The notes: a model not told the origin generated them from the letters alone. A stretch of DNA of 43,653 bases from a virus (IMGVR_UViG_3300001919_000032:1-43653), one strand, 5' to 3'. Positions 5,299 to 28,414 are shown, counted from the stretch's first letter. Numbers and translations are program-made.

Positions 5299-5322
5299 TG
5301 AGCCTGTAAACGCTTGACCGAG

Positions 5323-5353
5323 GCGGGAGGGGAAACTCTCCCGCTTTTCTTTT
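5323..5353 (+). terminator. Intrinsic terminator/attenuator after the capsid gene
   Basis: Stem GCGGGAG / CTCCCGC with an 8-nt loop, followed by TTTTCTTTT. Confidence 0.7.
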
Positions 5354-5539
5354 ATGCGAATTGAATTTCTCAAGGACTGTCTCTCGATGGTCGGAACGCG
5401 GAAAGCGGGCGATGTCGAAGAGGTTTACGACCCATACGCCGTTGTTCTGATTGAGCAGGGGCTGGCTCAGGCTGCGAAGGTTGTACCGCCGCCCAGGGCT
5501 CGGTCGAGAAAACCGGCGAAGGAAGACAAAAATGAGTGA
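5354..5539 (+). CDS. Hypothetical small head-module protein
   Basis: 61-aa ORF filling the gap between the capsid terminator and the connector gene. Its end overlaps the next start. Confidence 0.45.
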   Translation: MRIEFLKDCLSMVGTRKAGDVEEVYDPYAVVLIEQGLAQAAKVVPPPRARSRKPAKEDKNE

Positions 5540-5852
5540 CTATTTCGGCGCCGTGACGCTTGATGCCGCAAAGAAGCAGCTTCGCGTTGATTACGCCGAT
5601 GAGGATGAGCTCATAGTCACCTACATCATGGCAGCGACCGCTCAATGCGAGCAGATCTGCGGTCGGGAAATTGTGAAGCGCTCCGATGAGAATGCGCTCT
5701 GTGACTCTGTTGACGATGTTCCGGAGGCTGTCAGGACATGGGTGCTTTTAACCGTGACAGATCTTTACGAGCACCGCGGGGCATCAGAGAGCCCTATTGC
5801 GATTGGCAGGCGGTTCTATGACCACCTGCTCGACGGCTATCGGATCTTTTAG
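5532..5852 (+). CDS. Head-tail connector (gp6-like)
   Basis: MSDYFGAVTLDAAKKQLRVDYADEDELIVTYI... is the typical N-terminus of gp6-like head-tail connector proteins. The start at the internal ATG 5532 is my choice. Confidence 0.7.
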   Translation: MSDYFGAVTLDAAKKQLRVDYADEDELIVTYIMAATAQCEQICGREIVKRSDENALCDSVDDVPEAVRTWVLLTVTDLYEHRGASESPIAIGRRFYDHLLDGYRIF

Positions 5853-5860
5853 GGGGCCTT

Positions 5861-6211
5861 ATGCAGCTTCCAAAAGTTGGCGAACTGAAGCGTCCCATCG
5901 ACATTTACAGCCTTGAAACGAACCCGAAGGACGCATCCGACAGTGCGAACGACTTGACGCTGAAGCTCCATGTCTGGGCGAAGGTCGAAGTGATCGGGGG
6001 CGTGAACTACTGGGGGTCCGTGCAGGCGGGATTCGACGTGACGCATCGCTTCATCGTCCGTTACACGAATGGAACGCGCCCTCAGGACCTGACTCATGCA
6101 ACCAAGGTCTTTTACGAAGGGGCCTGGTATCTGGTGAAGCGCTTGACGGACATGAATGACGCCCACCGCTTTACCGCTTTGGAATGCGAGGCCCAGTATG
6201 GCGCTTCTTAA
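5861..6211 (+). CDS. Head closure / head-tail adaptor protein
   Basis: 116 aa; position and size match SPP1 gp16-type head closure proteins. Confidence 0.6.
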   Translation: MQLPKVGELKRPIDIYSLETNPKDASDSANDLTLKLHVWAKVEVIGGVNYWGSVQAGFDVTHRFIVRYTNGTRPQDLTHATKVFYEGAWYLVKRLTDMNDAHRFTALECEAQYGAS

Positions 6212-7258: not shown

Positions 7259-8734
7259 ATGGCAGTTTCCTTCTCCAACATCCCGTCCGGGATTCGTGTT
7301 CCGCTCTTTTATGCGGAGCTCGACAATTCTCAGGCCAATACGGCGACGAGCGTTCTGAAAACGCTGCTGATCGGCCAGATGACGAGCGGCAAGGCAACGG
7401 CCCTGAAGCCGCAGCTTGTGTCTTCCGCCGCCCAGGGCGAAGAGCTTTTCGGACATGGCTCCCAGCTCGCCCTGATGAACACGATGTATCGCAAGAACGA
7501 TACTTTCGGCGAGGTCTGGTGCATTCCTGTGGCGGATCCGACCGGGACCAAGGCTTCCGCTACGGCAACCATCTCCGGTACCCCGACTGAGGCGGGCACG
7601 ATCAATCTTTACATTGGGTCGGTGCGGGTAGCTGTCGCTGTTGCGGCTGATGATACGGCGACTGCCATTGCTTCGGCGATCGCTTCTGCTGTGACCGCCA
7701 ATGTCGACCTTCCGGTGACTGCCGCTGCGGCCGCTGGTGTGGTGACTTTCAACGCTAAGAACTCGGGCCTCGTCGGAAACGACATCCAGCTTGCCGTGAA
7801 CCTGCAGGGCTATTCTGCCGGCGAGGAGCTTCCCGAGGGCGTGAGTGTTGTGCTGACTGCGTTCTCGGGCGGGACTGGAACGCCTGATCTGGCCGGAGTG
7901 GTGGCTGCGATGGGCGAAGAGCAGTATGACGTGATTGCCTGTCCTTTTGCGGACGCCGCAAGCCTGACTACTTTGGCCGCAGAATTGAACGACGCGTCCG
8001 GGCGCTGGTCTCCGATGCGCCAGCTCTACGGCCACGTTTTCACGGTCAAGCGCGGTTCCGTGTCTGATCTGGTTTCCTTCGGAAAGAGCCGAAACAATCA
8101 GCATGAAACGGTGCTTGGCATCGAATCCGCCGTAGCTTCTTCCTGCTCGGAGGTCCTTGGTGCTTACGCCGCCCGGGCCGCGAGCGCTCTCAACAACGAT
8201 CCCGCCCGTCCGCTTCAGACCCTGGAGCTGATTGGCGTGACTGCGGCTCAGGCCGGATCGAGGTTCAACCTCTCGGAGCGGCAGAGCCTGCTTACGTCCG
8301 GCATCGCGACCGAGTATGTCCAGGGCGGCTACATGAGGATTGAGAGGGCTATTACGACCTATCAGACGAACGCCTTCGGGTCGTCTGACAACTCGTACTT
8401 GGATGTCTGCACGCTCTTTACGCTCGCTTACATCCTGCGCGACTTGAAGGCCGTCATCACGAGTAAGTACCCGCGTCACAAGCTCGCGTCCGATGGAACG
8501 CACTTTGGCTCCGGGCAGGCTGTGGTCACGCCTTCGATCATCCGCGCCGAGCTCATCGCCGAGTACCAGAAGCTCGAGGAGAAGGCTCTTGTCGAGAACC
8601 TGGACGCTTTCAAGCAGAACCTCATTGTCGAGCGCAATGCAGACGATCCGAACCGGGTCGATGTGCTGCTGCCGCCTGACCTTGTGAACCAGCTGAGGAT
8701 CTTCGCGGTTCTTGTTCAGTTCCGTCTGAATTAA
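7259..8734 (+). CDS. Tail sheath protein (Mu gpL-like)
   Basis: 491 aa. The N-terminus ...IPSGIRVPLFYAELDNSQA...LLIGQM... is characteristic of Mu/P2-type sheath proteins, and a tube gene follows. Confidence 0.85.
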   Translation: MAVSFSNIPSGIRVPLFYAELDNSQANTATSVLKTLLIGQMTSGKATALKPQLVSSAAQGEELFGHGSQLALMNTMYRKNDTFGEVWCIPVADPTGTKASATATISGTPTEAGTINLYIGSVRVAVAVAADDTATAIASAIASAVTANVDLPVTAAAAAGVVTFNAKNSGLVGNDIQLAVNLQGYSAGEELPEGVSVVLTAFSGGTGTPDLAGVVAAMGEEQYDVIACPFADAASLTTLAAELNDASGRWSPMRQLYGHVFTVKRGSVSDLVSFGKSRNNQHETVLGIESAVASSCSEVLGAYAARAASALNNDPARPLQTLELIGVTAAQAGSRFNLSERQSLLTSGIATEYVQGGYMRIERAITTYQTNAFGSSDNSYLDVCTLFTLAYILRDLKAVITSKYPRHKLASDGTHFGSGQAVVTPSIIRAELIAEYQKLEEKALVENLDAFKQNLIVERNADDPNRVDVLLPPDLVNQLRIFAVLVQFRLN

Positions 8735-10981: not shown

Positions 10982-12198
10982 TGGCTACTTTTGAAGAAAA
11001 GCTGTGGCCGGCGTCTTTCCGGGGCGTGCCGTTCAACGCAACGGCGAGCACGCTCACGATTGGCCGCCGGACGCATGTGTTTGAATACCCGCAGCGCGAC
11101 AAGCCCTTTGTCGAAGACTTGGGCAAAAGCGCTCGCGAAATCACTCTGACAGCGGTTTTCGCGGGCCCCGAGTACATCACTGGCATGAACCGCCTGCTTG
11201 AGGCGATGGAGCAGGAGGGCTCCGGCGTCCTCGTCCACCCAATGCTTGGCAGCATGACGGTGACGCCCAAAGCAACGACCAAGGTCACTTATTCGACGAC
11301 CAAGCTCGGGTTTTCGTCCGCCGATCTCGTTTTCGTCGAATCCGGGGACTATGTTTTCCCGACTTCCTCGAATGATACGGCGGCGGTAAGCGCCTCGGCC
11401 TCTGAAACCCTGAAGCAGAGCGCACTGGACGCATTTCTCGACAAGTTTGATCTTTCCGGCGCCCAGGACTTCGTGAAGGCGGCGGTTACGGGAAATCTTT
11501 CGAAGTTCTTCGAGCTCAGCGACTACAAGGAGCTCTGCCGGCTGTTTTCCGTGTCCGACGAGATGTCTGAGCTGTCGGCCAAGGCAATTTCCCTTGTGAG
11601 CAGAGATGTCGAGGTGTTTGCGAAGACCGTCGCCGACTCCTTCGGGTATTCGAGGCTGGCTTACAGCGTCAACAACTGGAGGCGTGTGACGAGGCTTTTG
11701 AGCCGCCTGGTGAGATCGGACGGCATGAACAACGATTACCAGACGGGGCAGGTTTCCGATGAAGAAGCGAGAACGACGGCTCAGTCTTCAACCCTCCAGT
11801 CTCTTGCTCGTCAGACGCTGCTTGCTGAGGCCGTTTCGGCGTCGGCTAAGGTTGGCGGTGATGAAGATACGGCAGAAGGCGGCATAGCCTACGAGGACAT
11901 GATCGCGGTGCGCGACCAGGTTCTTGCGGCGCTCGACGCTGAGATGCTGGAGACCGAGAGCGACGATGTTTATCTGGCGCTGGAAGACGCCCGATCGGCG
12001 GTGTCTGATGACATGACGACTCGGGCTCAGGACTCGGCTCGTTTAATATCTGTTACACCTCCGGACGTACAGCCGGCCCTGGTGGTTGCCTATAATTTTT
12101 ATGAGGATGCCGATCGGGAGAAAGAGATCATCGACCGCAACGGCATTCGGCACGGCGGGTTCGTCCCCGCCAGGGAGTTGAAGCTTCTGAGCCGGTGA
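10978..12198 (+). CDS. DNA circulation protein-like (Mu gp43/gpN-like) baseplate/tail protein
   Basis: The N-terminus WPASFRGVPF...HVFEYPQRDKPFVEDLGKSAREITLTAVF matches the DNA circularisation N-terminal domain. Confidence 0.75.
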   Translation: MMATFEEKLWPASFRGVPFNATASTLTIGRRTHVFEYPQRDKPFVEDLGKSAREITLTAVFAGPEYITGMNRLLEAMEQEGSGVLVHPMLGSMTVTPKATTKVTYSTTKLGFSSADLVFVESGDYVFPTSSNDTAAVSASASETLKQSALDAFLDKFDLSGAQDFVKAAVTGNLSKFFELSDYKELCRLFSVSDEMSELSAKAISLVSRDVEVFAKTVADSFGYSRLAYSVNNWRRVTRLLSRLVRSDGMNNDYQTGQVSDEEARTTAQSSTLQSLARQTLLAEAVSASAKVGGDEDTAEGGIAYEDMIAVRDQVLAALDAEMLETESDDVYLALEDARSAVSDDMTTRAQDSARLISVTPPDVQPALVVAYNFYEDADREKEIIDRNGIRHGGFVPARELKLLSR

Positions 12199-12203
12199 CC
12201 GCC

Positions 12204-12572
12204 ATGAAAAAGATCCTTGCTGTTGTTGCTGCTGTGCTTGGGGTTTGCTTAAGCGTCAACGCATTTGCGTATCATCGTGTTGCAAAAGAATGGGTTGATG
12301 CAGAAGGAGTAAAGCATCAGGAACTTATCTTGGTTCCAGATCCTCCAGGAACAAAGTATGCCCCTTATAAATTGACGCGCGAGCAGGAGCTTAAAGCGGA
12401 TTATGAGCGGAAATTAAAAGAAATACAGGAAGAGCAACGCTGGCGCGATGAACACAATAAGTTCGTAGAAAACGGAACAATAGGAAAATACACCAATTAC
12501 TATAACCCTGTAACGAAGCAGAGTATTTTGGTAGATCCCAAAACCGGTACTATCAAAATAGATAAGCCTTAA
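12204..12572 (+). CDS. Secreted/periplasmic moron protein with signal peptide
   Basis: MKKILAVVAAVLGVCLSVNAFA looks like a signal peptide. The gene is AT-richer than its neighbours and has its own terminator downstream. Confidence 0.6.
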   Translation: MKKILAVVAAVLGVCLSVNAFAYHRVAKEWVDAEGVKHQELILVPDPPGTKYAPYKLTREQELKADYERKLKEIQEEQRWRDEHNKFVENGTIGKYTNYYNPVTKQSILVDPKTGTIKIDKP

Positions 12573-12590
12573 TGGGATTGGTTTAAATAG

Positions 12591-12623
12591 GAGCACCTCA
12601 AGAAATTGGGGTGCTTTTTTTTT
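12591..12623 (+). terminator. Intrinsic terminator after the moron gene
   Basis: Stem AGCACC / GGTGCT followed by a T9 run that abuts the ATG at 12624. Confidence 0.65.
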
Positions 12624-13745
12624 ATGGCACCAGAAAACGAAGTCACACTATATATAAACGGTCGTAAATATATTGGCTGGCGGTCTGTTCAAATTGATGT
12701 CAGTGTGAATTCTTTAGTTCGCGTATGCGAACTTGGTGCGGCACGAACTTCCAATAGAACGAGTCTTTGCGATGGCATAGAAGAAGGCGCTGATGCTGTT
12801 GTTAAAATAGGTTCTGATACTGTTTTGACAGGATATGTCGTTAGCAAAAAAGTTAGCTATTCTGAAAACAGCACACAGATCCAAATAACGATTAAAAGTA
12901 AAACCGTTGATTTGGAAGAATGCATGATTCCGCCAAAAAAACCAAATCAATGGAAAAATGCGCGGATTTCTTCAGTAATAAAAACGGTGGCTGGGTATTA
13001 CGGAATAGAAACAATTGATAATGGCTTAGCTAAAAACGCTCGGAATATTGATTTTTCTACCCACGAAACTATAGGCAAGGGGATCGTAAACCTGCTTAAA
13101 GCTGACAGCCTTCTTATAAATGATGATGAATTTGGTGATTTAGTTATATGCGATATTGGTCAAAATGGTGACGCTCATGACCAACTTATATATGGTAAAA
13201 ATATTTTGAGTGGGTCAAGGGACCACGATATATCAAAGGTTTTCAAAACATATGTTGTTATTGGGCAAGGCACAGATCCGGAAAGTAAAAGCAAAAATCC
13301 GGCAAATTCTTTGTCTGAGCCTTCGGAAAATGCAGAGTTTCCTAGAAATAGGGTCTTGGTTACTGAACAATCAGGAAATAGAACAAGAAAAGAGCTTAAA
13401 ACTAGAGCAGATAATTTAAAGTTCAATTCTGTAGGAAATGCGGATGTTTTAACCTATCAAGTGCAGGGTTGGCGGCAAAGCAACGGGGATTTGTGGAAAC
13501 AAAACATGAATGTCGTAGTAAAAGACCCAATGCTTGACATTAGCCAAACGCTCTTGGTTTCAAAAATTAGCTATAAGCTTGATCAAGACGGATCTACGAC
13601 AACGATGGTGCTGAAATCCCATTGGGCGTTTGCGGTGACGGATCTACCAGATGCCGAAAAAGGCAAAACGACCAAAAAAACTAAAACGAAGCAGGCCAAG
13701 AAAGGAACGACATTCCTTGCCAAAGCGGGGTCCGGCAAACTATGA
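12624..13745 (+). CDS. Baseplate hub protein (Mu gp44/gpP-like, late-control-D-like)
   Basis: The N-terminus EVTLYINGRKYIGWRSVQIDVSVNSL is typical of this family. It sits between the gp43-like and gp45-like genes and is AT-rich. Confidence 0.65.
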   Translation: MAPENEVTLYINGRKYIGWRSVQIDVSVNSLVRVCELGAARTSNRTSLCDGIEEGADAVVKIGSDTVLTGYVVSKKVSYSENSTQIQITIKSKTVDLEECMIPPKKPNQWKNARISSVIKTVAGYYGIETIDNGLAKNARNIDFSTHETIGKGIVNLLKADSLLINDDEFGDLVICDIGQNGDAHDQLIYGKNILSGSRDHDISKVFKTYVVIGQGTDPESKSKNPANSLSEPSENAEFPRNRVLVTEQSGNRTRKELKTRADNLKFNSVGNADVLTYQVQGWRQSNGDLWKQNMNVVVKDPMLDISQTLLVSKISYKLDQDGSTTTMVLKSHWAFAVTDLPDAEKGKTTKKTKTKQAKKGTTFLAKAGSGKL

Positions 13746-14275
13746 GCAACGGTCTGATTGATCTGGTCACGAGAGGAGTGCTGCTGGCCAAGAACGCTGC
13801 CCGGAAGATGCGGACGGTGCAGGTGCAGCTCTTCGCCGATGACCTGAGGGACGATGTCGAGCATTTTGAGCCGTATGGATTCACCTCTGAGGCCAAGACA
13901 GGCGCCGAGGTGCTTGCCGCATCCCTTGCCGGAGACAGAGAGCACACGATCGCATTCTGCATCACCGACCGACGCTACCGCCCCACGGGGCTCAAGGACG
14001 GCGAAGTTTGCGTTTTCGATGATCTGGGGCGAAAGGTCTATTTCTCCCGATCCGGGATCGTTGTCGAGGGCAAGGATTCGCCGGTGACAGTAAAGAGCTC
14101 TGGATCTGTGACGATTGACGCGCCCGAGACCACCATCACGGGCAAGCTGATTGTTACCGGGGACATTCAGGGCAAGGCTCAGGTCTACGACAGCAATGGC
14201 CGCCTGCAGGCCATCCGCGACACATACAACAGCCACACCCACAACGGCGGCTCGGCTCCCGATCAGAAGATGTGA
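13742..14275 (+). CDS. Baseplate assembly protein V / central spike (Mu gp45-like)
   Basis: 177 aa. ...VQVQLFADDLRDDVEHFEPYGFTS... and the C-terminal ...DTYNSHTHNGG are typical of gpV/gp45 spikes. Confidence 0.8.
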   Translation: MSNGLIDLVTRGVLLAKNAARKMRTVQVQLFADDLRDDVEHFEPYGFTSEAKTGAEVLAASLAGDREHTIAFCITDRRYRPTGLKDGEVCVFDDLGRKVYFSRSGIVVEGKDSPVTVKSSGSVTIDAPETTITGKLIVTGDIQGKAQVYDSNGRLQAIRDTYNSHTHNGGSAPDQKM

Positions 14276-17729: not shown

Positions 17730-17747
17730 GCTTTTATTAGAAAGACA

Positions 17748-17784
17748 AGCCCCGCCCAGACGGCCATCTGAGCGGGGCTTTTTA
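17748..17784 (+). terminator. Intrinsic terminator-like hairpin (copy 2)
   Basis: AGCCCCGC ccagacggccatctga GCGGGGCT followed by T5. Confidence 0.7.
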
Positions 17785-17986: not shown

Positions 17987-18826
17987 ATGAAGAGACTTTA
18001 TTACTCAGACGCGTCTGACACGCCGCCTTCTCCGCCTAAGAATCCGATCACAAATCAGTATCCGCAGGATGGAAACAGAGCGAAAAAGCAGATGCCGACA
18101 GTGATCGGGGCCTACTGGTACCACATGATCACCGAGGAGTTCATGGCGGTGATCGAACAGGCCGGGCTGGAGCCGTCGCTTACAAATCTGCATCAGCTGG
18201 CTGATGTCTTTGCCGACTTCAAAACGCGGGCTGCAGGGGCCGAGGCTTACAAAACAGCGGCTGAAGCGGCCGCGACCCGGGCTGAAACGGCTGCCAACGG
18301 CGTTGTCACTGAAACAGCATCAAAGATTCAAGAAATCGATGCTGAAGGTGATAAGCAGGTCAAAGCCGTCCAGGACGCCGGGTCGACTGTTTCGTCTGAC
18401 ATCGAAGCGGGGAAAACAGCCCTGCAGAGCAAGCTCACAGAGCTTATTGCACAGCTGGATGCAGAGGGAGGAACCGAGGCCGCGTACGTGAAGCAGCAGG
18501 CGCAGGACATCCTCGATCAGATCACAGCCTCTGAATCTAATGCCAAAACATACGCTGAAAATGCTGCGGCCAGCGCGTCCTCTGCTGTGACCACGGTTTC
18601 GGATGGAAAACAGGCGATAACAGATCTTCAGGCGGCTGCAACAGCGGCAGTACGGGCGCAGCAGACCACTTCTGTTAAAGCTGTGAGCGACGCTCAGAGC
18701 TCTGCGCAAACTGCTGTTGCATCCGCTCAGTCAACGGCTGTTTCTGCAGTCAAATCTCAGGAAACCGCGAGCATCCAGGCGATTGAGACAGAGATGGAGA
18801 CTATCGACCTCGGAGAGCTGTCATGA
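17987..18826 (+). CDS. Tail fibre shaft-like protein (Ala-rich coiled coil)
   Basis: The internal ATG at 17987 has an SD (agagg). The N-terminus ...PTVIGAYWYHMITEEFMAVIE... resembles fibre attachment domains. The rest is an Ala/Thr/Gln-rich repeat. The stop overlaps the next start. Confidence 0.6.
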   Translation: MKRLYYSDASDTPPSPPKNPITNQYPQDGNRAKKQMPTVIGAYWYHMITEEFMAVIEQAGLEPSLTNLHQLADVFADFKTRAAGAEAYKTAAEAAATRAETAANGVVTETASKIQEIDAEGDKQVKAVQDAGSTVSSDIEAGKTALQSKLTELIAQLDAEGGTEAAYVKQQAQDILDQITASESNAKTYAENAAASASSAVTTVSDGKQAITDLQAAATAAVRAQQTTSVKAVSDAQSSAQTAVASAQSTAVSAVKSQETASIQAIETEMETIDLGELS

Positions 18827-19185
18827 AATCCAAGTATCTGCAGCTTCGCGGCGGAACGACAGCCAAGAATGAAGCTTTCACCGGCAAAAGCAGGGAGCTG
18901 ACGGTCGACACGGACGAGAAGCGCCTTCGGGTCCATGACGGCACAACGGCCGGCGGCCATCCCGTAGCGAAAGCGTCCGAGATTCCAACAAAGACAAGCG
19001 AGCTTGAGAACGATGCTTACGAGACGAAGACCAGTCTCAGCAAGCTATCACAACTGACGGATGACGTGGGCTACTGGACGAAAACAGGTCTCACAAAACT
19101 GTCCCAGCTCACAAACGACAGCGGGTATCAGACCGGGCATTGCACCTACTGCACCTACTGTTCGTACTGCACAAACTGCACATGA
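18823..19185 (+). CDS. Fibre-tip-like protein 1: Mtd-like N-domain + LSQLTxDxGY repeats + Cys-triad tail
   Basis: LQLRGGTTAKNEAFTGKSRELTVDTDEKRLRVHDGTTAGG resembles the N-terminal domain of the Bordetella phage Mtd tropism determinant. The C-terminus is HCTYCTYCSYCTNCT, with 5 Cys spaced every 3 residues. Confidence 0.75.
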   Translation: MKSKYLQLRGGTTAKNEAFTGKSRELTVDTDEKRLRVHDGTTAGGHPVAKASEIPTKTSELENDAYETKTSLSKLSQLTDDVGYWTKTGLTKLSQLTNDSGYQTGHCTYCTYCSYCTNCT

Positions 19186-19193
19186 GGCTTTAG

Positions 19194-19706
19194 ATGTCTT
19201 TAAAGGAAATCTTGTGGAAGGGCGGAACGGCATCGCAAAACGATGCGTACACGGGAGACTCAGGCGAGATCACGATCGACACGGACAGCCACCGCATTCG
19301 CGTTCACGATGGCGAGACGCCAGGCGGCACGGCTCTGGCACTCGTGAGCGACATCCCGACAAAGCTCTCGCAATTGACGAATGACGCGGGAGCATGGGAG
19401 AAGGGGGCGCTCACGGCATTGTCCCAGCTGACGGATGACGTGGGCTACTGGAAGAAGGCGGATTTAACAAAGATTTCACAGCTTACTAACGACTCTGGAT
19501 TTCAAACCGGGCACTGTTCGTATTGCTCTTACTGCTCGTACTGTTCACAGTGCAATAACTGCCTCAATTGCAACACGGTTCAATGTACGACCGTGAACTG
19601 CACAACCGTAAATTGCACAACCGTTAAGTGTTCTGTTTATACAAACTGCAGTTACTGCAGCAACTGCAGCAACTGTGATTGCAACTGCAATTGTTGTGAC
19701 GCATAA
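19194..19706 (+). CDS. Fibre-tip-like protein 2 with 64-residue Cys-repeat tail (19 Cys)
   Basis: Same N-domain and repeats as protein 1. Tail: HCSYCSYCSYCSQCNNCLNCNTVQCTTVNCTTVNCTTVKCSVYTNCSYCSNCSNCDCNCNCCDA. Confidence 0.75.
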   Translation: MSLKEILWKGGTASQNDAYTGDSGEITIDTDSHRIRVHDGETPGGTALALVSDIPTKLSQLTNDAGAWEKGALTALSQLTDDVGYWKKADLTKISQLTNDSGFQTGHCSYCSYCSYCSQCNNCLNCNTVQCTTVNCTTVNCTTVKCSVYTNCSYCSNCSNCDCNCNCCDA

Positions 19707-19715
19707 GGGGCGGTC

Positions 19716-20207
19716 ATGGTTAAGAAAATTCTTTTAAAGAGAGGATCCACCGCCGCCACGGGAGCATACGCTGGGAAATCCCGCGAGGTCACCGTCAACA
19801 CAGACAAAAAAATCCTTGTTGTGCATGACGGAGTAACAGTGGGCGGAACGAGTCTTGCCAGGCTTTCAGAGTTGCCTACAAAACTATCTCAGCTGACAGA
19901 GGACAGCGGAATCTGGACAAAAAATGCTCTTACTCTTGCGAGCCTTACAGACGATGTTGGGTACTGGAAAAAGTCTGATCTAACAAAAGTCTCACAGCTC
20001 ACTAACGACAACAAATACAAGACCGCGCACTGCTCCTATTGCAGCCATTGCACGTACTGCTCTAACTGCGGGCGCTGCAACAACGTTCAATGCAGCCAGG
20101 TTCAATGCGGTCAGGTTCAATGCAATCAGGTGCAGTGTTCGCAATGTTCAGGGCAATGCACAAACTGTAGCAATTGTAGTGGCAGCAGTGACTGCTGCGA
20201 CAACTAG
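19716..20207 (+). CDS. Fibre-tip-like protein 3 with 59-residue Cys-repeat tail (16 Cys)
   Basis: Same architecture as proteins 1 and 2. Tail: HCSYCSHCTYCSNCGRCNNVQCSQVQCGQVQCNQVQCSQCSGQCTNCSNCSGSSDCCDN. Confidence 0.75.
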   Translation: MVKKILLKRGSTAATGAYAGKSREVTVNTDKKILVVHDGVTVGGTSLARLSELPTKLSQLTEDSGIWTKNALTLASLTDDVGYWKKSDLTKVSQLTNDNKYKTAHCSYCSHCTYCSNCGRCNNVQCSQVQCGQVQCNQVQCSQCSGQCTNCSNCSGSSDCCDN

Positions 20208-20216
20208 GGGGGATTT

Positions 20217-21107
20217 ATGAAAAAAATAGCAGCGTGCGCCCTTGAAGACCACAATCATTTTGTCAATATTTTCGTTACTGACGAGGCCATGAGTGTTGCG
20301 CTATTTTCGCCGTATAGCGGGGATCAGGACGCGATCTCTTCTGACCAGTGCGGAACCTTTTTGAATCAGCACAACACATCCCCCTTCATGCTCAATAACG
20401 GAATCGTTGTGGCGGGAGCAGACCTCAAGGAAGGTCTGGCAGGCAAATTCATCTGCATTGGAAAAACTACGTATTTTTCCAACCCTGTTGCCGCAAAAAA
20501 TGCTTCTGTAGAGTGTTATGGGAGCGGGGAAATCACGGATCGTCGCTCCATGGCGTGGTTTGTAAAAAATGGATGGCTTTCTGCCCCGACCACTCGTAAC
20601 CCGATGAGCTACTTCACGAAAGCAGGGACGATGCGCACTTTGCAGCTTGAACGCATGCAGCTTGCGGTACAGCTCATTATGCCGTTTGCCTCTGAGTCGG
20701 TGACGAGCGACTACAACAGCATTCAGTTCAACTACTCTCCCACATACGGGTATCGTTGCAACCTTCCTGTTGAAGAATTCACGCTTGAACAGCTCCAGAA
20801 TCACGGGAACGGATGGTCTCCGAACCCGGTTTTGGCTCTTTCTGGTCCTGAATCGACCGAGGAAGACAAAGATGCGGAATTCTCTGTCTCCATGTCATGG
20901 GAAGACGGAACAGCAATTGAACACGATTCTGAAATTTATATTGATTCCACCGGTGGATACGTTCCTCTGCGCAGGCTTGTACTGAGCAATGGAGTGGGTA
21001 AATTCCGCATCCGGGCTCTGGGTCTCAAGGCAGGCGAGTCGTTCAAGGTGAAGGTGGGATGGCGGTATTTCACTGGTGCGGCTGAAAAGACGGTGCTCGT
21101 TGTATGA
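20217..21107 (+). CDS. Hypothetical protein of the fibre/rSAM cluster (possible Ig-like C-terminus)
   Basis: 296 aa, with an SD (gggggg) upstream and an ATGA overlap with the first rSAM gene. The C-terminus ...GVGKFRIRALGLKAGESFKVKVGW... looks like a beta-sandwich. Confidence 0.55.
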   Translation: MKKIAACALEDHNHFVNIFVTDEAMSVALFSPYSGDQDAISSDQCGTFLNQHNTSPFMLNNGIVVAGADLKEGLAGKFICIGKTTYFSNPVAAKNASVECYGSGEITDRRSMAWFVKNGWLSAPTTRNPMSYFTKAGTMRTLQLERMQLAVQLIMPFASESVTSDYNSIQFNYSPTYGYRCNLPVEEFTLEQLQNHGNGWSPNPVLALSGPESTEEDKDAEFSVSMSWEDGTAIEHDSEIYIDSTGGYVPLRRLVLSNGVGKFRIRALGLKAGESFKVKVGWRYFTGAAEKTVLVV

Positions 21108-21997
21108 TCCGGCGCCTGAATATCGTACTGGGTGCGGCATGCAATAGGCATTGCTCCTACTGTTGCCAGGCGGCTCCCGCAGACAGGTTGTCATGTGGAA
21201 AAACAGACTGGTCGGGTCTCAGAAAAAAGCTTCGCTTTTATAACGAGAATGGCGCCTTCAGAAAGCTTGAGCGCATCAGTTTCTGGGGCGGAGAACCCAT
21301 GCTTTATTGGGGCGTTGTTAAGGCGCTCTACCAGGTTCTGTGTGACGACGGCGTTTATCCAGACTCTATTTACCGGGTTGCTACAAACGGGGATCTTATA
21401 AACGAAGATTACGTGCAGTTCGCCAACAGCACCCCAGGGTGGTTGACAACGGTGAGTTGGCACGATGGTTCTATATCAGAGAGCCAGTGGTCAGTTCTGA
21501 GACGTCTTGATAACTGCTTTATAACGGGTCTGGTCACGAGCCGGTGGAGGGATGAAATTCCCGCCATGAGAGATAAATATGACTCTCTTGGTCTGAGTCT
21601 GCCGGTACAGCTATGGCCAGTCCACTTTGTGGGCCAGTGCTCTGAGGATGACAAACTCACCGCTAAAAGCGTTGATGATGCCCTTGAGTACATTCGAATC
21701 CTTGTTGCCCATGCATCCAGGCGCGGGCGAGAGAGGCCTGATTGTGGGGACGAGTCGGTTCTAACAGTTGATTTACATGGCCGTGAATACCTGTGCCAAC
21801 ACAATCCGTCGCCTGAGACATTGAGTTCTCATAGTCGACTGTACCGGGCTGAAACCGTCAGAAAAGGATGTCGCGAATGCGTTGCCTGGGACCATTGCGG
21901 AGGCGGATGTTTTCTTACTTCAAATCGAAAAGCGGAGTGCCGGTTCTACCGGGAATACGTTCGGCTAGGGAGATCTTTGAATGAAACTGCGTCTTAA
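21104..21997 (+). CDS. Radical SAM enzyme with SPASM domain (1)
   Basis: CNRHCSYC is the CX3CX2C cluster motif at residues 13-20, and FWGGEPMLYW is the SAM-binding GGEP motif. The C-terminal C-X13-G-X4-C ... CRECVAWDHCGGGC (CX2CX5CX3C) ... C gives the full 7-Cys SPASM signature. Confidence 0.85.
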   Translation: MIRRLNIVLGAACNRHCSYCCQAAPADRLSCGKTDWSGLRKKLRFYNENGAFRKLERISFWGGEPMLYWGVVKALYQVLCDDGVYPDSIYRVATNGDLINEDYVQFANSTPGWLTTVSWHDGSISESQWSVLRRLDNCFITGLVTSRWRDEIPAMRDKYDSLGLSLPVQLWPVHFVGQCSEDDKLTAKSVDDALEYIRILVAHASRRGRERPDCGDESVLTVDLHGREYLCQHNPSPETLSSHSRLYRAETVRKGCRECVAWDHCGGGCFLTSNRKAECRFYREYVRLGRSLNETAS

Positions 21998-23219
21998 TGT
22001 TAGGGAGCGAGATGGATCGCGCCACGTATGGGAATACGACAACGTGACGAACGAACTGTGGCGAGAGGGCGTACTTCTTGATCTGTCGAAAGATGAGCGC
22101 TTATCACAGTATATGAGCGGCCAGACTCACAGAGCACAGGTTTTCTCCGACAGCAAGAGCAAGGATCTCTACGATCTGAGAATACAGTTAGGTCTTCGCT
22201 GCAACATGCATTGTCGTTATTGCGCGCAGTCGGATCGAGCTTTAGAGAAGGCGTGCTGGGGGCCCAAGGACGTACCCGCGTTCATCGCAAAACTCAAGGC
22301 CGGCAACGTCAATGTGACTGGCGTCATCGAACTCTGGGGTGGAGAGCCTTTTGTTTATTGGAAGACTATTAAAAATCTTGTCCCTCAGTTGCGCGAAATG
22401 TATCCCAACGTCCGGTTTGCCATGATCACAAATGGGACGCTTCTAACTGAAGACAAGATTTCATTCTGCGAGAAATATCGTATTGATCTTACATTTAGTC
22501 ATGATGGACAGGGCTATCGGCTCCGCGGTGCGGATCCCCTGGACGATCCAAAAATGGTTGATCTGTGGAGGCTTGCGTTCTCAAAACTTCGCTGCAACAT
22601 CAATTGCGTTCTATCCCCGGCAAATACAGATATAGAGCAGATCATTGAACACATTCATTCCCGACTCGGGGCTGTGCCTATCAACTTCGAAGGCATCATG
22701 ACCCATGTAGGAGTGACAGATAAAGAATTGATGTTCTCAGACAAGCAGTTGCTCACGCTCCAAAAAAACATTTTTACAGCAATGACATCCGGACCGTGGG
22801 CTAAATTTCCGGCGCTGGAGCAGCAGTGCCGCAGCCTTATCCAGATGCTAGTGAATCGAAAGAGACTGAACCCGAGAGCAGTTAAGTGCTGCATGCATTC
22901 TCCTGATAATGCTGCAGTTAATCTCAACGGAGATGTACTTTCTTGCCACGATCATTGCACACCGGACAAGTTTGTCGGGAGGATAGAGGACCTGGAGGGC
23001 GTGGATATCTCTCGCTGTTTTAAACCATGGTGTGAGAGGCCGGAGTGCCGCAAATGCCTCGTTCTGTCCATGTGCCGCGGCGCCTGCCCGCAGATTGAGG
23101 GGCTGGCAAGGACGCTCACATGCAAAAACGAGGGTGCTTACAAGTTTGCTGTCTTCCAGGCTGTTATCTGGCTGCTGTTTGGCCTGACGCTGGAGTCGTA
23201 TGCACCGGTGGAGGGCTGA
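21981..23219 (+). CDS. Radical SAM enzyme with SPASM domain (2), with ~70-aa N-terminal extension
   Basis: Carries CNMHCRYC (CX3CX2C), LWGGEPFVYW, C-X12-G-X4-C ... CRKCLVLSMCRGAC ... C. The C-terminus FAVFQAVIWLLFGLTL is hydrophobic. Confidence 0.85.
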   Translation: MKLRLNVRERDGSRHVWEYDNVTNELWREGVLLDLSKDERLSQYMSGQTHRAQVFSDSKSKDLYDLRIQLGLRCNMHCRYCAQSDRALEKACWGPKDVPAFIAKLKAGNVNVTGVIELWGGEPFVYWKTIKNLVPQLREMYPNVRFAMITNGTLLTEDKISFCEKYRIDLTFSHDGQGYRLRGADPLDDPKMVDLWRLAFSKLRCNINCVLSPANTDIEQIIEHIHSRLGAVPINFEGIMTHVGVTDKELMFSDKQLLTLQKNIFTAMTSGPWAKFPALEQQCRSLIQMLVNRKRLNPRAVKCCMHSPDNAAVNLNGDVLSCHDHCTPDKFVGRIEDLEGVDISRCFKPWCERPECRKCLVLSMCRGACPQIEGLARTLTCKNEGAYKFAVFQAVIWLLFGLTLESYAPVEG

Positions 23220-23251
23220 CCATGTGCACGTCAGAAACTTTTTACAACCGA

Positions 23252-23278
23252 GCGGCCGCCCGAATAGGCGGCTTTTTT
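23252..23278 (+). terminator. Intrinsic terminator after the rSAM genes
   Basis: GCCGCC cgaata GGCGGC followed by T6. Confidence 0.7.
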
Positions 23279-23326
23279 AGTACCCCGACTTTGGCTAAGG
23301 GTGCGCTTCCGATAGGAGTGGCTGGA

Positions 23327-23533: not shown

Positions 23534-23743
23534 ATGGGTGGCATCTATATGGAAGATGATACCAAAGAAAGATTAGACAGACTAGAGGCTTTTATGGATG
23601 AGCAAAGGTTGGAAAAAGTTCAGCAAGCCGCCATTGATAACTACAAAAAAGAGCGTTTCCATTATTGGAAAGAGAGAGTCTTAGTCGCTTGCGCTCTTAT
23701 CGGAGGTGTTCTCGGCGTAATCGGGTTCGTCCGATCACTGTGA
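23534..23743 (+). CDS. Small membrane protein of the lysis cassette (holin/antiholin candidate)
   Basis: 69 aa with a coiled N-terminus and a C-terminal TM segment, VLVACALIGGVLGVIGFV. It lies directly upstream of the endolysin. An alternative start is at 23549. Confidence 0.5.
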   Translation: MGGIYMEDDTKERLDRLEAFMDEQRLEKVQQAAIDNYKKERFHYWKERVLVACALIGGVLGVIGFVRSL

Positions 23744-23763
23744 GGACTCAGGGAGCTTTTCTC

Positions 23764-24225
23764 ATGAATCGCTATCAAATAGCAGCCATGACCGTATCAG
23801 CCGCCACGTTGGTAGGGATCGCCGGGTACGAAGGCTATTCCTCGGTGGCTTATGTTCCGGTAAAGGGCGATGCCCCGACTATCGGATGGGGTACGACAAC
23901 GGGAGTGAAGAAAGGCGATACTATCGAGCCGACACAGGCGCTCCAGAGACTGTACCGGGATACCGAGATGGCGAAGGCCGGAATAAGTAACTGCATCAAA
24001 GTCCCGATAAGCCAAGGGGAACTAGATGCGTATCTGTCGCTTTCTTACAACATCGGGGCCGGGGCGTTTTGCAAGTCGACGCTTGTGAAGAGGCTGAACC
24101 GCGGCGATTACGCCGGAGCGTGCTCGGAGATTAAGCGCTGGTGCTACTTCAAGGGAAAAAAGTTACCCGGTTTAGTCGAGAGAAGAGAGAAGGAATACCG
24201 GACGTGCTTGAGGGGGCAGCCATGA
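23764..24225 (+). CDS. Endolysin, GH24 lysozyme with SAR-like N-terminus
   Basis: GYEGYSSVAYVPVKGDAPTIGWGTT carries the E-X8-D-X5-T catalytic triad. The weakly hydrophobic N-terminus IAAMTVSAATLVGIAG resembles a signal-arrest-release domain. Confidence 0.85.
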   Translation: MNRYQIAAMTVSAATLVGIAGYEGYSSVAYVPVKGDAPTIGWGTTTGVKKGDTIEPTQALQRLYRDTEMAKAGISNCIKVPISQGELDAYLSLSYNIGAGAFCKSTLVKRLNRGDYAGACSEIKRWCYFKGKKLPGLVERREKEYRTCLRGQP

Positions 24226-24725
24226 CAAAACTAACGCTACTGAAGATTCTTTCCTTCATTGCCTACATAGTTGCGCTCTTCGCCGCCGGCTACCAGTACG
24301 GGCACCAGAAGACAGCCGCGGCCTACGAGGCACAGATCGCCAAAGACAAGGCGGCTCAGGCCGAGTCCGCTCAGGCGCTAGAGTCACAATATCGGGAGAA
24401 AGAAAATGAGAGTGCAAAGAGAGTCGACGCGGCTCTGGCTGCGAGAGACAAAGCCCTGGCTGATGCTAGTCGTGTGCGGGCTGATGCTGAGCGGGTGCGC
24501 CTCCAGTCCGACAGTCTCAGCAAGCGTCTGTCCAGAGCCTCCGAAGCCCACGCCGCTGCCGCAGACGGTCACTCAGAGCGACTCGGAAAGTGCGAGAGCT
24601 TACTCTCAGAAAGTTCAGACCTTCTCGGCGAAAGTGTCGAGCTGGCAGGCGAAGGTGCGAGCTTATCTGTCAGAGTAGCCGCCGATAAGGACGCCGTGGT
24701 CAATTCAATTCAACCGATCAATTGA
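24222..24725 (+). CDS. Rz: i-spanin (Rz-like)
   Basis: N-terminal TM segment (LLKILSFIAYIVALFAAG) followed by an Ala/Glu/Arg-rich coiled coil. Coupled to the endolysin by ATGA. Confidence 0.75.
   Translation: MTKLTLLKILSFIAYIVALFAAGYQYGHQKTAAAYEAQIAKDKAAQAESAQALESQYREKENESAKRVDAALAARDKALADASRVRADAERVRLQSDSLSKRLSRASEAHAAAADGHSERLGKCESLLSESSDLLGESVELAGEGASLSVRVAADKDAVVNSIQPIN
24406..24678 (+). CDS. Rz1: o-spanin (Rz1-like) embedded in the +1 frame of Rz
   Basis: Lipobox LMLSGC followed by a Pro-rich segment (CPEPPKPTPLPQ). It lies entirely within the Rz gene, with an SD (gggagaaag) upstream. Confidence 0.7.
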   Translation: MRVQRESTRLWLRETKPWLMLVVCGLMLSGCASSPTVSASVCPEPPKPTPLPQTVTQSDSESARAYSQKVQTFSAKVSSWQAKVRAYLSE

Positions 24726-25847: not shown

Positions 25848-27200
25848 ATGAGAGTGGCAAACCGAATGACTGAAAAGCGGCTGAAAGCCTTGACAGCAGA
25901 CGCTTCGTGCGGTGTTGTGCCGGGGCTTTATGTGTCTGTCAGGAGGCTCAAGGACGGTTCATACGCGAAGTATTTCCTGCTTCGTGAGCGCAGCCTGAAG
26001 CGTGTATTCACACTAGGTAAATTCCCTGAGATGACCTTGGCCGAGGCATTCGAAAAAGGAAGGTTGTGGAAAAAGAAGATTGCTGAGGGGATTGACCCGG
26101 CCAAGGAAGAGAAGGCCGCGATGGAGGCGTTGCGTCCTGCAGACCCGGGCAAAGAAGAGAACGTTCTGACTTTCGAAAAGCTGATATGGAAGTGGATCGA
26201 GTTCAATGAAAAGCGCGGCCGGTGGAAGAACGCGAACAAATCCCGGGATCAGGTTTGGACGGGGTTCTTCAGGAATCACATCCCGCAGGAGATCCGCGAC
26301 TGCCCGGTTGTGGATTTGACTCCGCAGATGTTTTGCGACGCGTTAGGAGAGAAGTGGCGTACCATGATTGACACGCCGGAGCGCATTCTCGGTGACGCGA
26401 AGCGGGCGATCGATTGGGCGATACGCTCCGAGATGGTCCCACCGATGGTGAACCCGTGCCAGGTTGTCGACGGGCGCCTTGGAGATCTGCTTCCGCTTGA
26501 TCGTCCAGAAGGAGGCCATGAGCCCGCTCTGCCGCCAAAACGCATGCCAGAGTTTTTCAAGGCTCTGATGAAGCTTGTTCCGGTGAGCCAGACGGCCAGA
26601 TGTCTCGCGTTTGCCATCCTAACGTCGGCTCGCAACACGACAGCCCGCGAGGCCACCTGGGGGGAGATACAGAAAGACGACAACGACCAGTGGCTACATG
26701 TCATTCCCCGGACTCGCATGAAGGTTAAGAGCGAGAAGATTCCGTTTGATCGAAAGACGCCGCTTTGTGAAGAGGCGGTTCAGTTGATCAGGACGGCGCC
26801 GCGGATGGGAAATGATCCGGATGACTATATCTTCCCGAATGTCAACAAGGGGCATAGCTCGCCGTTTACGCGCGACGCCGTTCGTGCGCTTATCAAGCGC
26901 ATGCATGACAAGCAGCGAAAAATCGACGGCATCGGCTGGGTGGATCCTGATCAGTTCCATGCGAAGACCGGCAAGCCCCGCATAGTGACGCTTCACGGCC
27001 TCGCCCGAGCGACGTTCAACACTTGGGCCAAGGATGCCAAGGGATACGGCCACAAGCCGTTCTCGCGCGATTTAAGGGAGAGTTGCCTCGATCACCGAAA
27101 CGAGTCCTACCAGTGTGCCTACGACCGGGAGCAGGCTCTGGGGGACATGAGGGAGGTCTATGACGCCTGGGGAAAGTTCTGTGCTTCTTTATGCCGCTAG
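25848..27200 (+). CDS. int: Tyrosine integrase (P4-type, N-terminal arm-binding domain)
   Basis: ...LKALTAD...VPGLYVSVRRLKDGSYAKYFLLR...LGKFPEMTLAEAFEKG is arm-binding-domain-like. The C-terminus has HGLARATF and a terminal Tyr region. The gene is adjacent to the tRNA fragment. Confidence 0.85.
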   Translation: MRVANRMTEKRLKALTADASCGVVPGLYVSVRRLKDGSYAKYFLLRERSLKRVFTLGKFPEMTLAEAFEKGRLWKKKIAEGIDPAKEEKAAMEALRPADPGKEENVLTFEKLIWKWIEFNEKRGRWKNANKSRDQVWTGFFRNHIPQEIRDCPVVDLTPQMFCDALGEKWRTMIDTPERILGDAKRAIDWAIRSEMVPPMVNPCQVVDGRLGDLLPLDRPEGGHEPALPPKRMPEFFKALMKLVPVSQTARCLAFAILTSARNTTAREATWGEIQKDDNDQWLHVIPRTRMKVKSEKIPFDRKTPLCEEAVQLIRTAPRMGNDPDDYIFPNVNKGHSSPFTRDAVRALIKRMHDKQRKIDGIGWVDPDQFHAKTGKPRIVTLHGLARATFNTWAKDAKGYGHKPFSRDLRESCLDHRNESYQCAYDREQALGDMREVYDAWGKFCASLCR

Positions 27201-27962
27201 TTGTTCTGTATATTTTTCTTTTTGGCTCCAAACTATGGGGATTGTCTGATAGTTATTTAATGGATTTATTACGGTGTCTTCATTAGCGGCAATTTCTTGA
27301 TCATTTATTACTACATAAAGGCGGCTTTCTTCTTTTCTGTTTATTTTTGTGTCTGTCCAAGACCACAAAATTTGCTGGGTTATGCTCTTGTTAGGGGTGT
27401 TCATAATCCTTAAAAGCCTTTCAGGATTATTTTTTGATTTTGGAATTGCAAAATCAAATTTATAAGATAATGAAGATCTGCCAATTAACTGAATATTTGG
27501 TATATATCGCACATTATTTATATCAAGCCAGTCTTTTACATCGTCAAAAAAGAAAGAAAACGCTTGTTCCTTTGATGTGTAAAACAGATCACTAACACTC
27601 AGCATTGCTTGAATAAGGTTGTTCATATGCAAGCCAAGCGAGTTTTTATCGCCAACATTAACTTTTGTAATCAACTCTCCATCTTTTTCTGTAATGCCGA
27701 AACCGCGAAGAGTTACTTCAAGCAAAGATTTCCGTTTCCCAGAGCTTAAATCAACGCCAGAGCACAACAGGTCGTTTAATATCTCTCCAGCGTCTGTTAA
27801 ACAATATTCATTTTTATTTTTAGTAATATAAATTTGAATTTTATCATTGTGCCGGTCTAAAAAAGGAGTGGTGATTTCTGTATATTCACCATGGCTGCGC
27901 TGAGCACTTTTTAGTTGAGATTTAAGCCAGTCTATATATTCATTTGCGAAGTCTTCCATCAA
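27189..27962 (-). CDS. Hypothetical protein, DUF1828/DUF1829-like (AT-rich cargo gene)
   Basis: 257 aa; ...EITTPFLDRHNDKIQIYITKNKNEYCLTDAGE... resembles DUF1828 N-domains. One sampled 60-nt line (27421..27480) counted about 23% GC; the rest of the gene looks similarly AT-rich by eye. Confidence 0.45.
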   Translation of the reverse strand: MMEDFANEYIDWLKSQLKSAQRSHGEYTEITTPFLDRHNDKIQIYITKNKNEYCLTDAGEILNDLLCSGVDLSSGKRKSLLEVTLRGFGITEKDGELITKVNVGDKNSLGLHMNNLIQAMLSVSDLFYTSKEQAFSFFFDDVKDWLDINNVRYIPNIQLIGRSSLSYKFDFAIPKSKNNPERLLRIMNTPNKSITQQILWSWTDTKINRKEESRLYVVINDQEIAANEDTVINPLNNYQTIPIVWSQKEKYTEQLAA

Positions 27963-28414
27963 AATAACTCCTCATTTCCAGAAATATCTTCTGCAAATAA
28001 AACCGCTCTTACATTGAAGCGCTTCATAAAATCTTCTAAACTTTTTTTGGGATCATCTGGATCTCGTATCCATTTAACTGGCAAAGCAACTTTGTCGCCA
28101 TATTTTTCAGAATATAAATGTATGTGTGGCGCGCCTATTTCTGTGCCATCGGGGTTTCTGTGTTCTCCATACATATCTAACCTAGCAAGAACTGTTGATG
28201 TTCTTACACGCAATTGAGCTTTTATTTTTAGAATTATTCTTTTTTGTGAAATATCAAAAATAAATTTCTCTTTTAAGCTCTTTGATTCCAAGGGAACAAT
28301 GATCGGTTCTTTCTCTAAGTGCTTGGTGGTAAAAAGCTCAGACGTTGTCCTCGTCTTTTCCGTCTCCAAAAGAACTTTAGCTCTTTCGTCAGATATAACC
28401 GCTTTTTTCATCAT
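27959..28414 (-). CDS. Hypothetical protein co-transcribed with 27189..27962
   Basis: 151 aa, ATGA-coupled to the downstream gene. Conserved-looking core: LDMYGEHRNPDGTEIGAPHIHLYSEKYGDKVALP. Confidence 0.5.
   Translation of the reverse strand: MMKKAVISDERAKVLLETEKTRTTSELFTTKHLEKEPIIVPLESKSLKEKFIFDISQKRIILKIKAQLRVRTSTVLARLDMYGEHRNPDGTEIGAPHIHLYSEKYGDKVALPVKWIRDPDDPKKSLEDFMKRFNVRAVLFAEDISGNEELF

Follow-up and report, generated by a model that had tools for sequence, protein, structure and literature searches.

Phage fibre proteins with cysteine-rich C-terminal tails and their linked radical-SAM/SPASM enzymes: a widespread gene module with a proposed role in fibre-tip modification

Introduction

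Why should a phage place two radical S-adenosylmethionine (SAM)/SPASM enzymes within its tail-fibre gene block, directly behind three small fibre-like proteins that end in arrays of cysteines? The question is raised by a viral DNA stretch of 43,653 nucleotides (IMGVR_UViG_3300001919_000032:1-43653; hereafter the window), in which one tight operon at 17987-23281 encodes a fibre shaft, three paralogous mini-fibres (A, B and C), an accessory protein (U) and two radical-SAM/SPASM enzymes (R1 and R2). We found that cysteine tails of this kind and enzymes of the R2 family accompany each other in unrelated phages, a link that is close to obligate in both directions. From sequence comparison and analogy with characterised enzymes we propose, at a probability of roughly 0.6, that A, B and C are distal fibre proteins whose Cys tails R1 and R2 modify, most likely by installing thioether cross-links.

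Results

The operon

The module has the following parts.

17987..18826, + strand, fibre shaft: tail-fibre N-terminal attachment region, then an Ala-rich coiled coil; match to phrog_6859, tail fiber protein (E 2.5e-6)
18823..19185, + strand, mini-fibre A, 120 aa
19194..19706, + strand, mini-fibre B, 170 aa
19716..20207, + strand, mini-fibre C, 163 aa
20217..21107, + strand, U, accessory protein, 296 aa
21104..21997, + strand, R1, radical-SAM/SPASM, 297 aa
21981..23219, + strand, R2, radical-SAM/SPASM, 412 aa
23254..23281, + strand, intrinsic terminator closing the operon: 7-bp GC-rich stem (23254-23273), then a T run

Each gene has a ribosome-binding site or a stop/start overlap; U and R1 overlap via ATGA, and R1 and R2 by 17 nt. 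The mechanically called start of the shaft open reading frame (ORF) is GTG 17903, and its likely start is ATG 17987, which is preceded by a GAGG ribosome-binding site. An earlier note, made from the sequence of the window alone, had described at 18823-23219 the three paralogues of 120, 170 and 163 aa, a 296-aa protein and two enzymes, with a fibre-shaft gene just upstream of the paralogues, overlapping stops and starts, and a single terminator downstream; ORF calls, the phrog_6859 match and the terminator stem agree with it on every point checked. The layout is kept in 24 related viral contigs (R2 identity 66–69%), where the Cys columns are invariant and the intervening residues variable, and because of this conservation the order A-B-C-U-R1-R2 is not attributable to chance.

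Cysteine tails and R2-family enzymes accompany each other

R2 is the family marker of the module. With tblastn, R2 homologues of ~31% identity were found in Achromobacter phages JWF and 2-1 and in Ralstonia phage RSP15, each directly 3' of tail-fibre genes. A profile scan counted at least 510 viral contigs and 166 bacterial species genomes with an R2 relative; the genomes are mostly of Rhodobacterales, other Alphaproteobacteria and Burkholderiales, and their loci encode Cys tails of the same kind. Beside enzymes only ~30% identical to R2, (N-C)n tails on same-strand ORFs end, for instance, in ...NCNCNCRC*.

The association was counted from both sides. In the forward direction, the strict pattern (C.){3,}C was applied to all six-frame ORFs of 58 loci with enzymes only 29–36% identical. 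It matched 63 of the 645 same-strand ORFs whose ends lie no more than 3.5 kb upstream of the enzyme, and 5 of 3632 other ORFs. All five of the latter are same-strand, 408–420 aa long and a few kb downstream, beside a second U and an R1-type enzyme; R1-type enzymes adjoin their own CxC-tail protein and U at L051, L059, L063, L068 and L069. An upstream match to the Cys run was present in 45/58 loci, and several of the others have related tails (L047, CNNC-type; L057; L056; L002). In the reverse direction, viral contigs were scanned for DNA encoding NCNCNCNC, which returned 120 stretches, 72 of them real ORFs with the run C-terminal or before the start of a Hint domain. Of the 42 real ORFs followed by 3.5 kb of DNA or more, 41 had a same-strand R2-family enzyme downstream; the 36 non-terminal or junk matches had none. 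On the strength of these forward and reverse counts we regard the link as close to obligate both ways. The genome-neighbourhood survey thus carries the pairing of Cys-tail and SPASM genes, seen earlier in the window only, to unrelated phages in both test directions, and the module is widespread, not peculiar to one phage.

Tandem tail-enzyme pairs occur at L047. Up to three separate module copies occur in single Rhodobacterales genomes, those of Thalassobacter stenotrophicus (L089, L092, L159) and a Tabrizicola metagenome-assembled genome (L086, L088, L095).

The tails are carried at the ends of fibre proteins

All three mini-fibres of the window match Mtd_N (Pfam PF18454) above its gathering cut-off of 26.3 bits (A 46, B 33.4, C 33.8), which vindicates the Mtd-like N-termini attributed to them earlier, and all three match a PHROG 'tail protein' family (phrog_9648 for A). 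Mtd_N is followed by two or three LSQLTNDxGY-type repeats (three in B, three in C), a [GA]-H-C junction and the Cys tail; repeats, junction and Cys counts of 5, 19 and 16 were all as first described. These matches, and the position of the module between baseplate/fibre genes and lysis genes, mark A, B and C as putative virion tail-fibre proteins. Their tails are as follows.

19135..19182, + strand, Cys tail of A: 16 aa, GHCTYCTYCSYCTNCT, 5 Cys, spacing 3,3,3,3
19509..19703, + strand, Cys tail of B: 65 aa, 19 Cys, (xxC)x6, (xxxxC)x4, then ...CSNCSNCDCNCNCCDA
20025..20204, + strand, Cys tail of C: 60 aa, 16 Cys, period 3, then period 5 (CSQVQ-type units), end ...SSDCCDN

The Cys spacing in B is 3 six times, 5 four times, then 6,3,3,3,2,2,2,1; in C it is 3 five times, 5 four times, then 3,4,3,3,6,1. 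The tails are encoded by DNA tandem repeats of period 9 and 15 (19141-19181, 19513-19693 and 20085-20131). The number of CTTVN-type units differs among orthologues, and tail length may be varied by slippage or recombination.

The core motif of the wider family is (N-C)n at the extreme C-terminus. Among 87 distinct tails, whose Cys runs hold 4–8 Cys, N precedes the first Cys in 80, and N (56%) is the commonest residue between Cys, followed by D (13%), R (8%), A (6%) and Q (5%). The run ends within 8 aa of the stop codon in 77/87; of the remainder, most lead into a Hint domain, whose self-cleavage would expose the run. The fibre protein gp028 of phage JWF, for example, reads ...RQNCNCDCNCNCSC and then directly enters a Hint domain (CFPAGTMVLMADG...); in phage RSP15, the C-terminus of fibre gp048 is ...NTNCQCGN and gp047 is a U homologue. 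Pfam confirms a Hint domain at L039, where it occurs with collagen repeats, and at L070. Such loci include the following.

L001 (JWF gp028), 4676-6127: Cys run abutting the first Cys of a Hint (intein-like) domain
L039, 4184-5359 and 6052-7239: the same arrangement
L070, 5651-6994: the same arrangement
L009, 3545-4477: the same arrangement
L019, 5239-6153: the same arrangement

In the clade of the window, some B or C orthologues continue past ...CDCNCTDDS into a ~150-aa extension starting CFVSGK. This extension is probably also a Hint domain, as suggested by a weak match to a home-made Hint profile (10–14 bits); Pfam finds no domain there. Proteins A, B and C of the window stop where it would begin.

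The tail carriers are unrelated to one another. Of ten larger ones, eight match different tail-fibre PHROGs, others have Mtd_N or collagen, they reach 615 aa, and their neighbour genes are fibre genes. The view of the carriers as fibre proteins is thereby upheld, and it favours modification of a structural protein over release of a peptide. L078 has a tandem of three mini-fibres that carry LSQFTNDLGNY repeats, end in NCNCNCNC and look much like those of the window. At L047, two mini-fibres, each with PTKISQLTNDSGY and a Cys tail, alternate with three R2-type enzymes and a U gene. The most Cys-rich tails, of mixed period 3 and 5, accompany two or more enzymes, which fits one enzyme per link type. 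Apart from these, Magnetospirillum loci L128 and L130 (5137-6189) encode a 347-aa tail-fibre protein with the end ...GGYCSYCSYCTCACSDCSC, a period-3 CSY pattern like that of the window tails; because Magnetospirillum is a distant host, the CxxC variant is not limited to gut phages.

R1 and R2 are SPASM enzymes outside the characterised families

R1 and R2 are paralogues with 28% identity. Both contain CX3CX2C (C13 in R1, C74 in R2), GGEP, C-X(12-13)-G-X4-C, CX2CX5CX3C and one more conserved Cys, so that the cluster-binding motif, GGEP and complete SPASM Cys pattern that the earlier note had claimed for both can be read directly in the proteins. The SPASM pattern is invariant in 61 homologues, and Fe-S clusters, two of them auxiliary, are predicted from it. 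Membership of the radical-SAM superfamily is indicated by the motif and GGEP in R1 and by superposition of the R2 model on radical-SAM structures; the Radical_SAM model (PF04055, gathering cut-off 29.5) gives 38.7 bits for R2 and 26.4, just under, for R1. The SPASM hidden Markov model (HMM) TIGR04085 scores R1 at 18.6 bits, under the cut-off of 27.

An AlphaFold2 (AF2) model of R2 built from 61 homologues (pLDDT 92) has a ~65-aa N-terminal extension, a three-stranded beta-sheet plus helix, ahead of the barrel and the SPASM domain; R1 is shorter and lacks the extension. The best Foldseek matches of the R2 model are CteB (5wgg/5why), anSMEcpe, ChlB, SuiB, BlsE, SkfB and TigE, and 5wgg/5why is also the closest solved structure by sequence (5wgg being best for R1). 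The best NCBIfam matches of R1 and R2 are PapB, SCIFF maturase, CcpM, QhpD, HxsB, CefB and the anaerobic sulfatase-maturating enzyme (anSME). Neither protein belongs to any of the four families compared in detail. The PapB family (NF047865, cut-off 340) gives 72.5 bits over the full length of R2 and 37 for R1; the SCIFF maturase/CteB family (TIGR03974, cut-off 425) gives 52.8 and 37.3 bits, and the adjoining substrates are fibre proteins, not SCIFF peptides; QhpD (TIGR03906, cut-off 453) gives 48.7 and 26.8 bits, and no qhp genes are found among the operon ORFs; anSME (TIGR03942, cut-off 349) gives 48.8 bits (full length, E 5e-13). R2 also matches phrog_1802 (E 2e-39), and the public database names of the R2 family are generic.

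By their motifs and the modelled fold, the class of the enzymes is secure: they should be SPASM enzymes acting on peptides or proteins, often at Cys, and they lie outside every characterised family. The HMM searches give no fit to a non-peptide family, in line with the peptide-directed role foreseen for these enzymes, and the best matches are the Cys-modifying maturases PapB, CteB, QhpD and anSME. A viperin or defence identity was considered and rejected; the pVip/viperin and PADLOC matches cover only the generic N-terminal ~100 residues, at 31.8–42 bits against an NCBIfam cut-off of 180.

Protein U and oxygenase-like genes

U is a conserved third component of the module. Homologues are present at ~41/58 of the distant loci, and the family comprises 564 representative clusters in a 1.84-billion-protein library, nearly all of them stand-alone proteins of 240–345 aa. 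U has no family match in Pfam, NCBIfam or PHROG, and a profile search of the PDB was also empty. Its N-terminal ~200 aa are an orphan region, and its C-terminus is an immunoglobulin (Ig)-like beta-sandwich. The AF2 model, made from an alignment of 7 sequences only that came from word-index homologue searches, has a pLDDT of 47 with a confident C-terminal domain only, and its PDB fold matches are generic immunoglobulin folds.

In 72/162 loci, one or two genes between the Cys-tail and radical-SAM genes give weak matches to 2OG-FeII_Oxy_5 (E ~3e-5, under the Pfam cut-off). Examples are:

L045, 6346-7089 and ~7370-8001: oxygenase-like genes
L078, 7276-7920: oxygenase-like gene

They are found in 70/116 single-enzyme loci and in 2/46 loci with at least two radical-SAM genes, a count that shared ancestry confounds; the gut clade of the window has none. 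This distribution suggests that an O2-dependent step may be replaced by extra radical-SAM enzymes in phages of anaerobes.

Discussion

A model for covalent modification of fibre tips

In the model that we favour, A, B and C would form small trimeric fibres or fibre tips on a temperate myovirus. The Mtd_N domain would serve for attachment, probably to the shaft protein encoded directly upstream, and the repeats would make a short shaft ahead of the Cys tail. While late genes are expressed, R1 and R2 would act on the Cys tails by radical chemistry in the anaerobic cytoplasm of the host. The likeliest products would be thioethers between the sulfur of a Cys and a carbon atom in a neighbouring residue (Asn, Asp, Thr or Ser) or in the residue at the C-terminus, as with ranthipeptide/QhpD-type enzymes; we favour this chemistry because the closest enzymes form thioethers. 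The outcome might be a compact tip or staple insensitive to redox and proteases. U, with its Ig-like domain, could act as a chaperone or docking factor, or be a partner in the structure. The idea that the phage modifies its own fibre tips was already put forward in the earlier note, and comparative genomics, through the two-way co-occurrence and the fibre carriers, supports it.

Acceptors documented for this enzyme class are Asp/Glu (PapB, QhpD), Thr (CteB), Asn (a streptococcal ranthipeptide) and a residue with a free C-terminal carboxylate (PapB) (PMC11002830; PMC12373016). These residues, and this position, are those typical of the tails, which supports thioether formation. For PapB, the acceptor must be C-terminal to the donor Cys; such a rule would explain the placement of the run at the extreme C-terminus, and of a self-cleaving Hint domain after it where the protein is longer.

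Several observations pull the other way. Every NCBIfam maturase score is 5–10 times under the family cut-off, and with scores so far under every curated maturase cut-off the chemistry is not transferable by homology. Structurally, anSME, which makes formylglycine and no cross-link, is as close to R2 as CteB is. The tails of the window are mainly CxxC and CxxxxC with S/T/Y/Q/V between Cys and so depart from the wider family, whose consensus is CxC rich in N/D; the two kinds of tail may be modified differently. The 19 Cys of tail B far exceed the obvious acidic acceptors. Profile and fold searches detected no RiPP-recognition element (RiPP, ribosomally synthesised and post-translationally modified peptide) and no chaperone signature in U, and a few R2 loci were without a Cys tail in the DNA examined.

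A broader form of the model can be offered only tentatively, with the odds somewhat against its holding as a whole. The enzymes, as a dedicated family, might staple fibre C-termini in many phages of Proteobacteria and in some others, turning a portable (N-C)n tail, or in gut phages a longer tail of CxxC/CxxxxC spacing, into a thioether ladder whose links might join the three chains of the trimer; U would assist, Hint would expose the C-terminus where needed, and O2-dependent oxygenases in phages of aerobes would be replaced by extra radical-SAM enzymes in phages of anaerobes.

Alternative explanations

The alternative that survives best, which we nevertheless judge unlikely, is that the enzymes act on the tails without cross-linking them, by an anSME-like conversion of Cys to formylglycine (giving an aldehyde-rich tip), by epimerisation or by another single-residue radical edit. 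anSMEcpe is among the best structures and has the highest target-normalised TM-score (0.61–0.67); anSME is a full-length NCBIfam match and a precedent for a SPASM enzyme that works on a protein without a leader peptide; and the original annotation of JWF gp030 names an anaerobic sulfatase-maturating enzyme. The family score of 48.8 is, however, far under the cut-off of 349, A, B and C contain no copy of the anSME substrate motif [CS]x[PA]xR, and Asn/Asp enrichment by Cys together with C-terminal placement better suits donor-acceptor chemistry (PMC12373016).

It is less likely again that A, B and C are RiPP precursors in which the fibre-like N-terminus acts as leader, and from which a cleaved Cys-rich peptide is freed at lysis as a bacteriocin, signal or exclusion factor. 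A precursor beside its maturase is the layout typical of RiPP clusters, the [GA]-H-C junction could serve as a cleavage site, and the N-terminal beta-sheet domain of R2 is located where many maturases have a recognition element. Yet gene maps of the window operon and of representative loci show no protease or exporter gene, the supposed leaders are mutually unrelated while all being fibre proteins of up to 615 aa, and the module always lies within tail-fibre gene blocks. The Hint domain after the tail in relatives likewise argues for an exposed C-terminus on a larger protein.

An improbable third possibility is that the Cys tails bind metal, as metallothionein-like clusters or as a trimeric metal-thiolate column (compare the HxH iron sites of T4), the enzymes serving another purpose or loading the metal or cluster. 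CxC, CxxC and CC are typical metal ligands, and the fibre tips of T4-like phages have inward-facing metal ligands, both of which speak for it. Metal binding would leave the near-obligate two-way link to a SPASM enzyme unexplained, as well as the Asn/Asp enrichment, and we know of no precedent for a SPASM enzyme as a metal-loading factor. Incidental adjacency of auxiliary metabolic or anti-defence radical-SAM genes in a variable region by the fibre genes is hardly credible: phage radical-SAM genes were earlier treated as metabolic (PMC2853527) and there are weak partial viperin-model matches, but these are limited to the generic cluster-binding N-terminus, a full SPASM domain is present, and the two-way co-occurrence counts exclude chance.

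Relation to known systems

Thioether cross-linking of fibre tips by R1 and R2, the reading we prefer, would extend known chemistry to a new setting. In ranthipeptide and sactipeptide maturation (CteB/SCIFF, PapB/freyrasin and the streptococcal Cys-Asn case), a SPASM enzyme is likewise encoded beside a Cys-rich ribosomal substrate; these maturases are the best sequence and structure matches, and their acceptors (Asp, Glu, Thr, Asn and the C-terminal carboxylate) match the Cys-flanking residues here. Unlike in those systems, the proposed substrate is not a short leader-core peptide but the end region of a fibre protein, at its C-terminus, and the module is phage-encoded, in a tail-fibre block, with U as an extra partner and, in relatives, oxygenase-like genes and Hint. 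The best functional analogy for cross-linking of a structural subunit would be QhpD-QhpC, in which a SPASM enzyme adds several Cys-Asp/Cys-Glu thioethers in a protein that is kept in a larger assembly (PMC11002830), although substrate, partners and biological setting are unrelated. anSME acts on Cys of a full-length protein without a leader, as R1 and R2 would, and is structurally close to R2; it makes one formylglycine, in contrast to the arrays of 4–19 Cys here.

On the fibre side, Mtd of Bordetella phage BPP-1, a distal receptor-binding fibre component, shares Mtd_N with 37–38% identity over ~65 aa; A, B and C lack its C-type-lectin variable domain and have a Cys-repeat tail at the distal end instead. 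The Hint domain after the run in relatives resembles C-terminal modules that are removed after fibre assembly, such as the Peptidase_S74 intramolecular chaperone and Hint/intein-like modules, so that cleavage there is predicted; A, B and C of the window differ in ending at the tail, without Hint.

Radical-SAM/SPASM maturation of Cys-rich substrates is already known. What is new here is a putative virion-fibre substrate class, the (N-C)n C-terminal tag, the enzyme subfamily, the partner U and the phage setting. The earlier note knew of no such coupling for phage tail fibres, and no description of it was found in the literature searched; most subscription journals were outside that search, so a prior report is possible. 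A pelagimyophage paper notes radical-SAM cassettes in the host-recognition cluster and leaves them uninterpreted.

Should the broader form of the model hold, it would mark the first case of a virion structural protein modified by radical-SAM chemistry, and RiPP-type enzymes would gain a new class of substrates; to our knowledge, hardly any example is known of enzymes that covalently modify the receptor-binding fibres of phages. Were the tails cross-linked, fibre assembly, stability and perhaps host recognition would hinge on an unrecognised maturation in hundreds of phages, among them gut, marine Rhodobacterales and plant-pathogen phages. Many phage radical-SAM genes now labelled metabolic or hypothetical would gain a role, and engineered fibres may require co-expression of the enzyme. 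For RiPP enzymology, the module would offer a new enzyme subfamily and a simple, portable C-terminal tag usable on large proteins. Cultured systems are available in Achromobacter phage JWF (gp028-030) and Ralstonia phage RSP15 (gp045-048).

Phage context and other features of the window

The window is a temperate myovirus of Mesosutterella. It encodes a large terminase, capsid protein, sheath, baseplate J, Mu gp48-like protein, collar-domain fibre and integrase, and U (99% identity) and R2 (97%) have near-identical counterparts among the hypothetical proteins of Mesosutterella sp. AGMB02718, an anaerobic betaproteobacterium of the gut. The module is positioned between baseplate/fibre genes and lysis genes. 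Its GC content is ~0.50, against 0.54–0.60 in the neighbouring baseplate and fibre genes, and one further element lies ahead of it:

17747..17780, no strand, hairpin (15-bp stem) that separates the collar-domain fibre gene from the module

The hairpin may be the boundary of a cassette, and the module may be a mobile cassette, a reading that fits its occurrence on unrelated phage types. At the nucleotide level, the module had no match in the phage and E. coli collections searched.

A diversity-generating retroelement, considered because of Mtd_N, was rejected, there being no reverse-transcriptase-like ORF within the window. In a large gut phage (L028, 2921-3937), a reverse-transcriptase-like ORF (...GVDFLGYRHF...) lies ~2 kb upstream of fibre and Cys-tail genes and could belong to such an element.

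Two low-GC islands stand out from the background of 0.55–0.59, at 12001-14000 (0.44–0.46) and 27001-28000 (0.39). Judged by translations only, a lysis block at 23534-24725, 3' of the terminator, contains a small membrane-protein-like ORF and a 186-aa lysozyme-looking ORF. Within it, a 194-aa ORF (24141-24725) holds an embedded 90-aa ORF in another frame (24406-24678) with a lipobox-like LSGC, an arrangement comparable to Rz/Rz1 spanin pairs.

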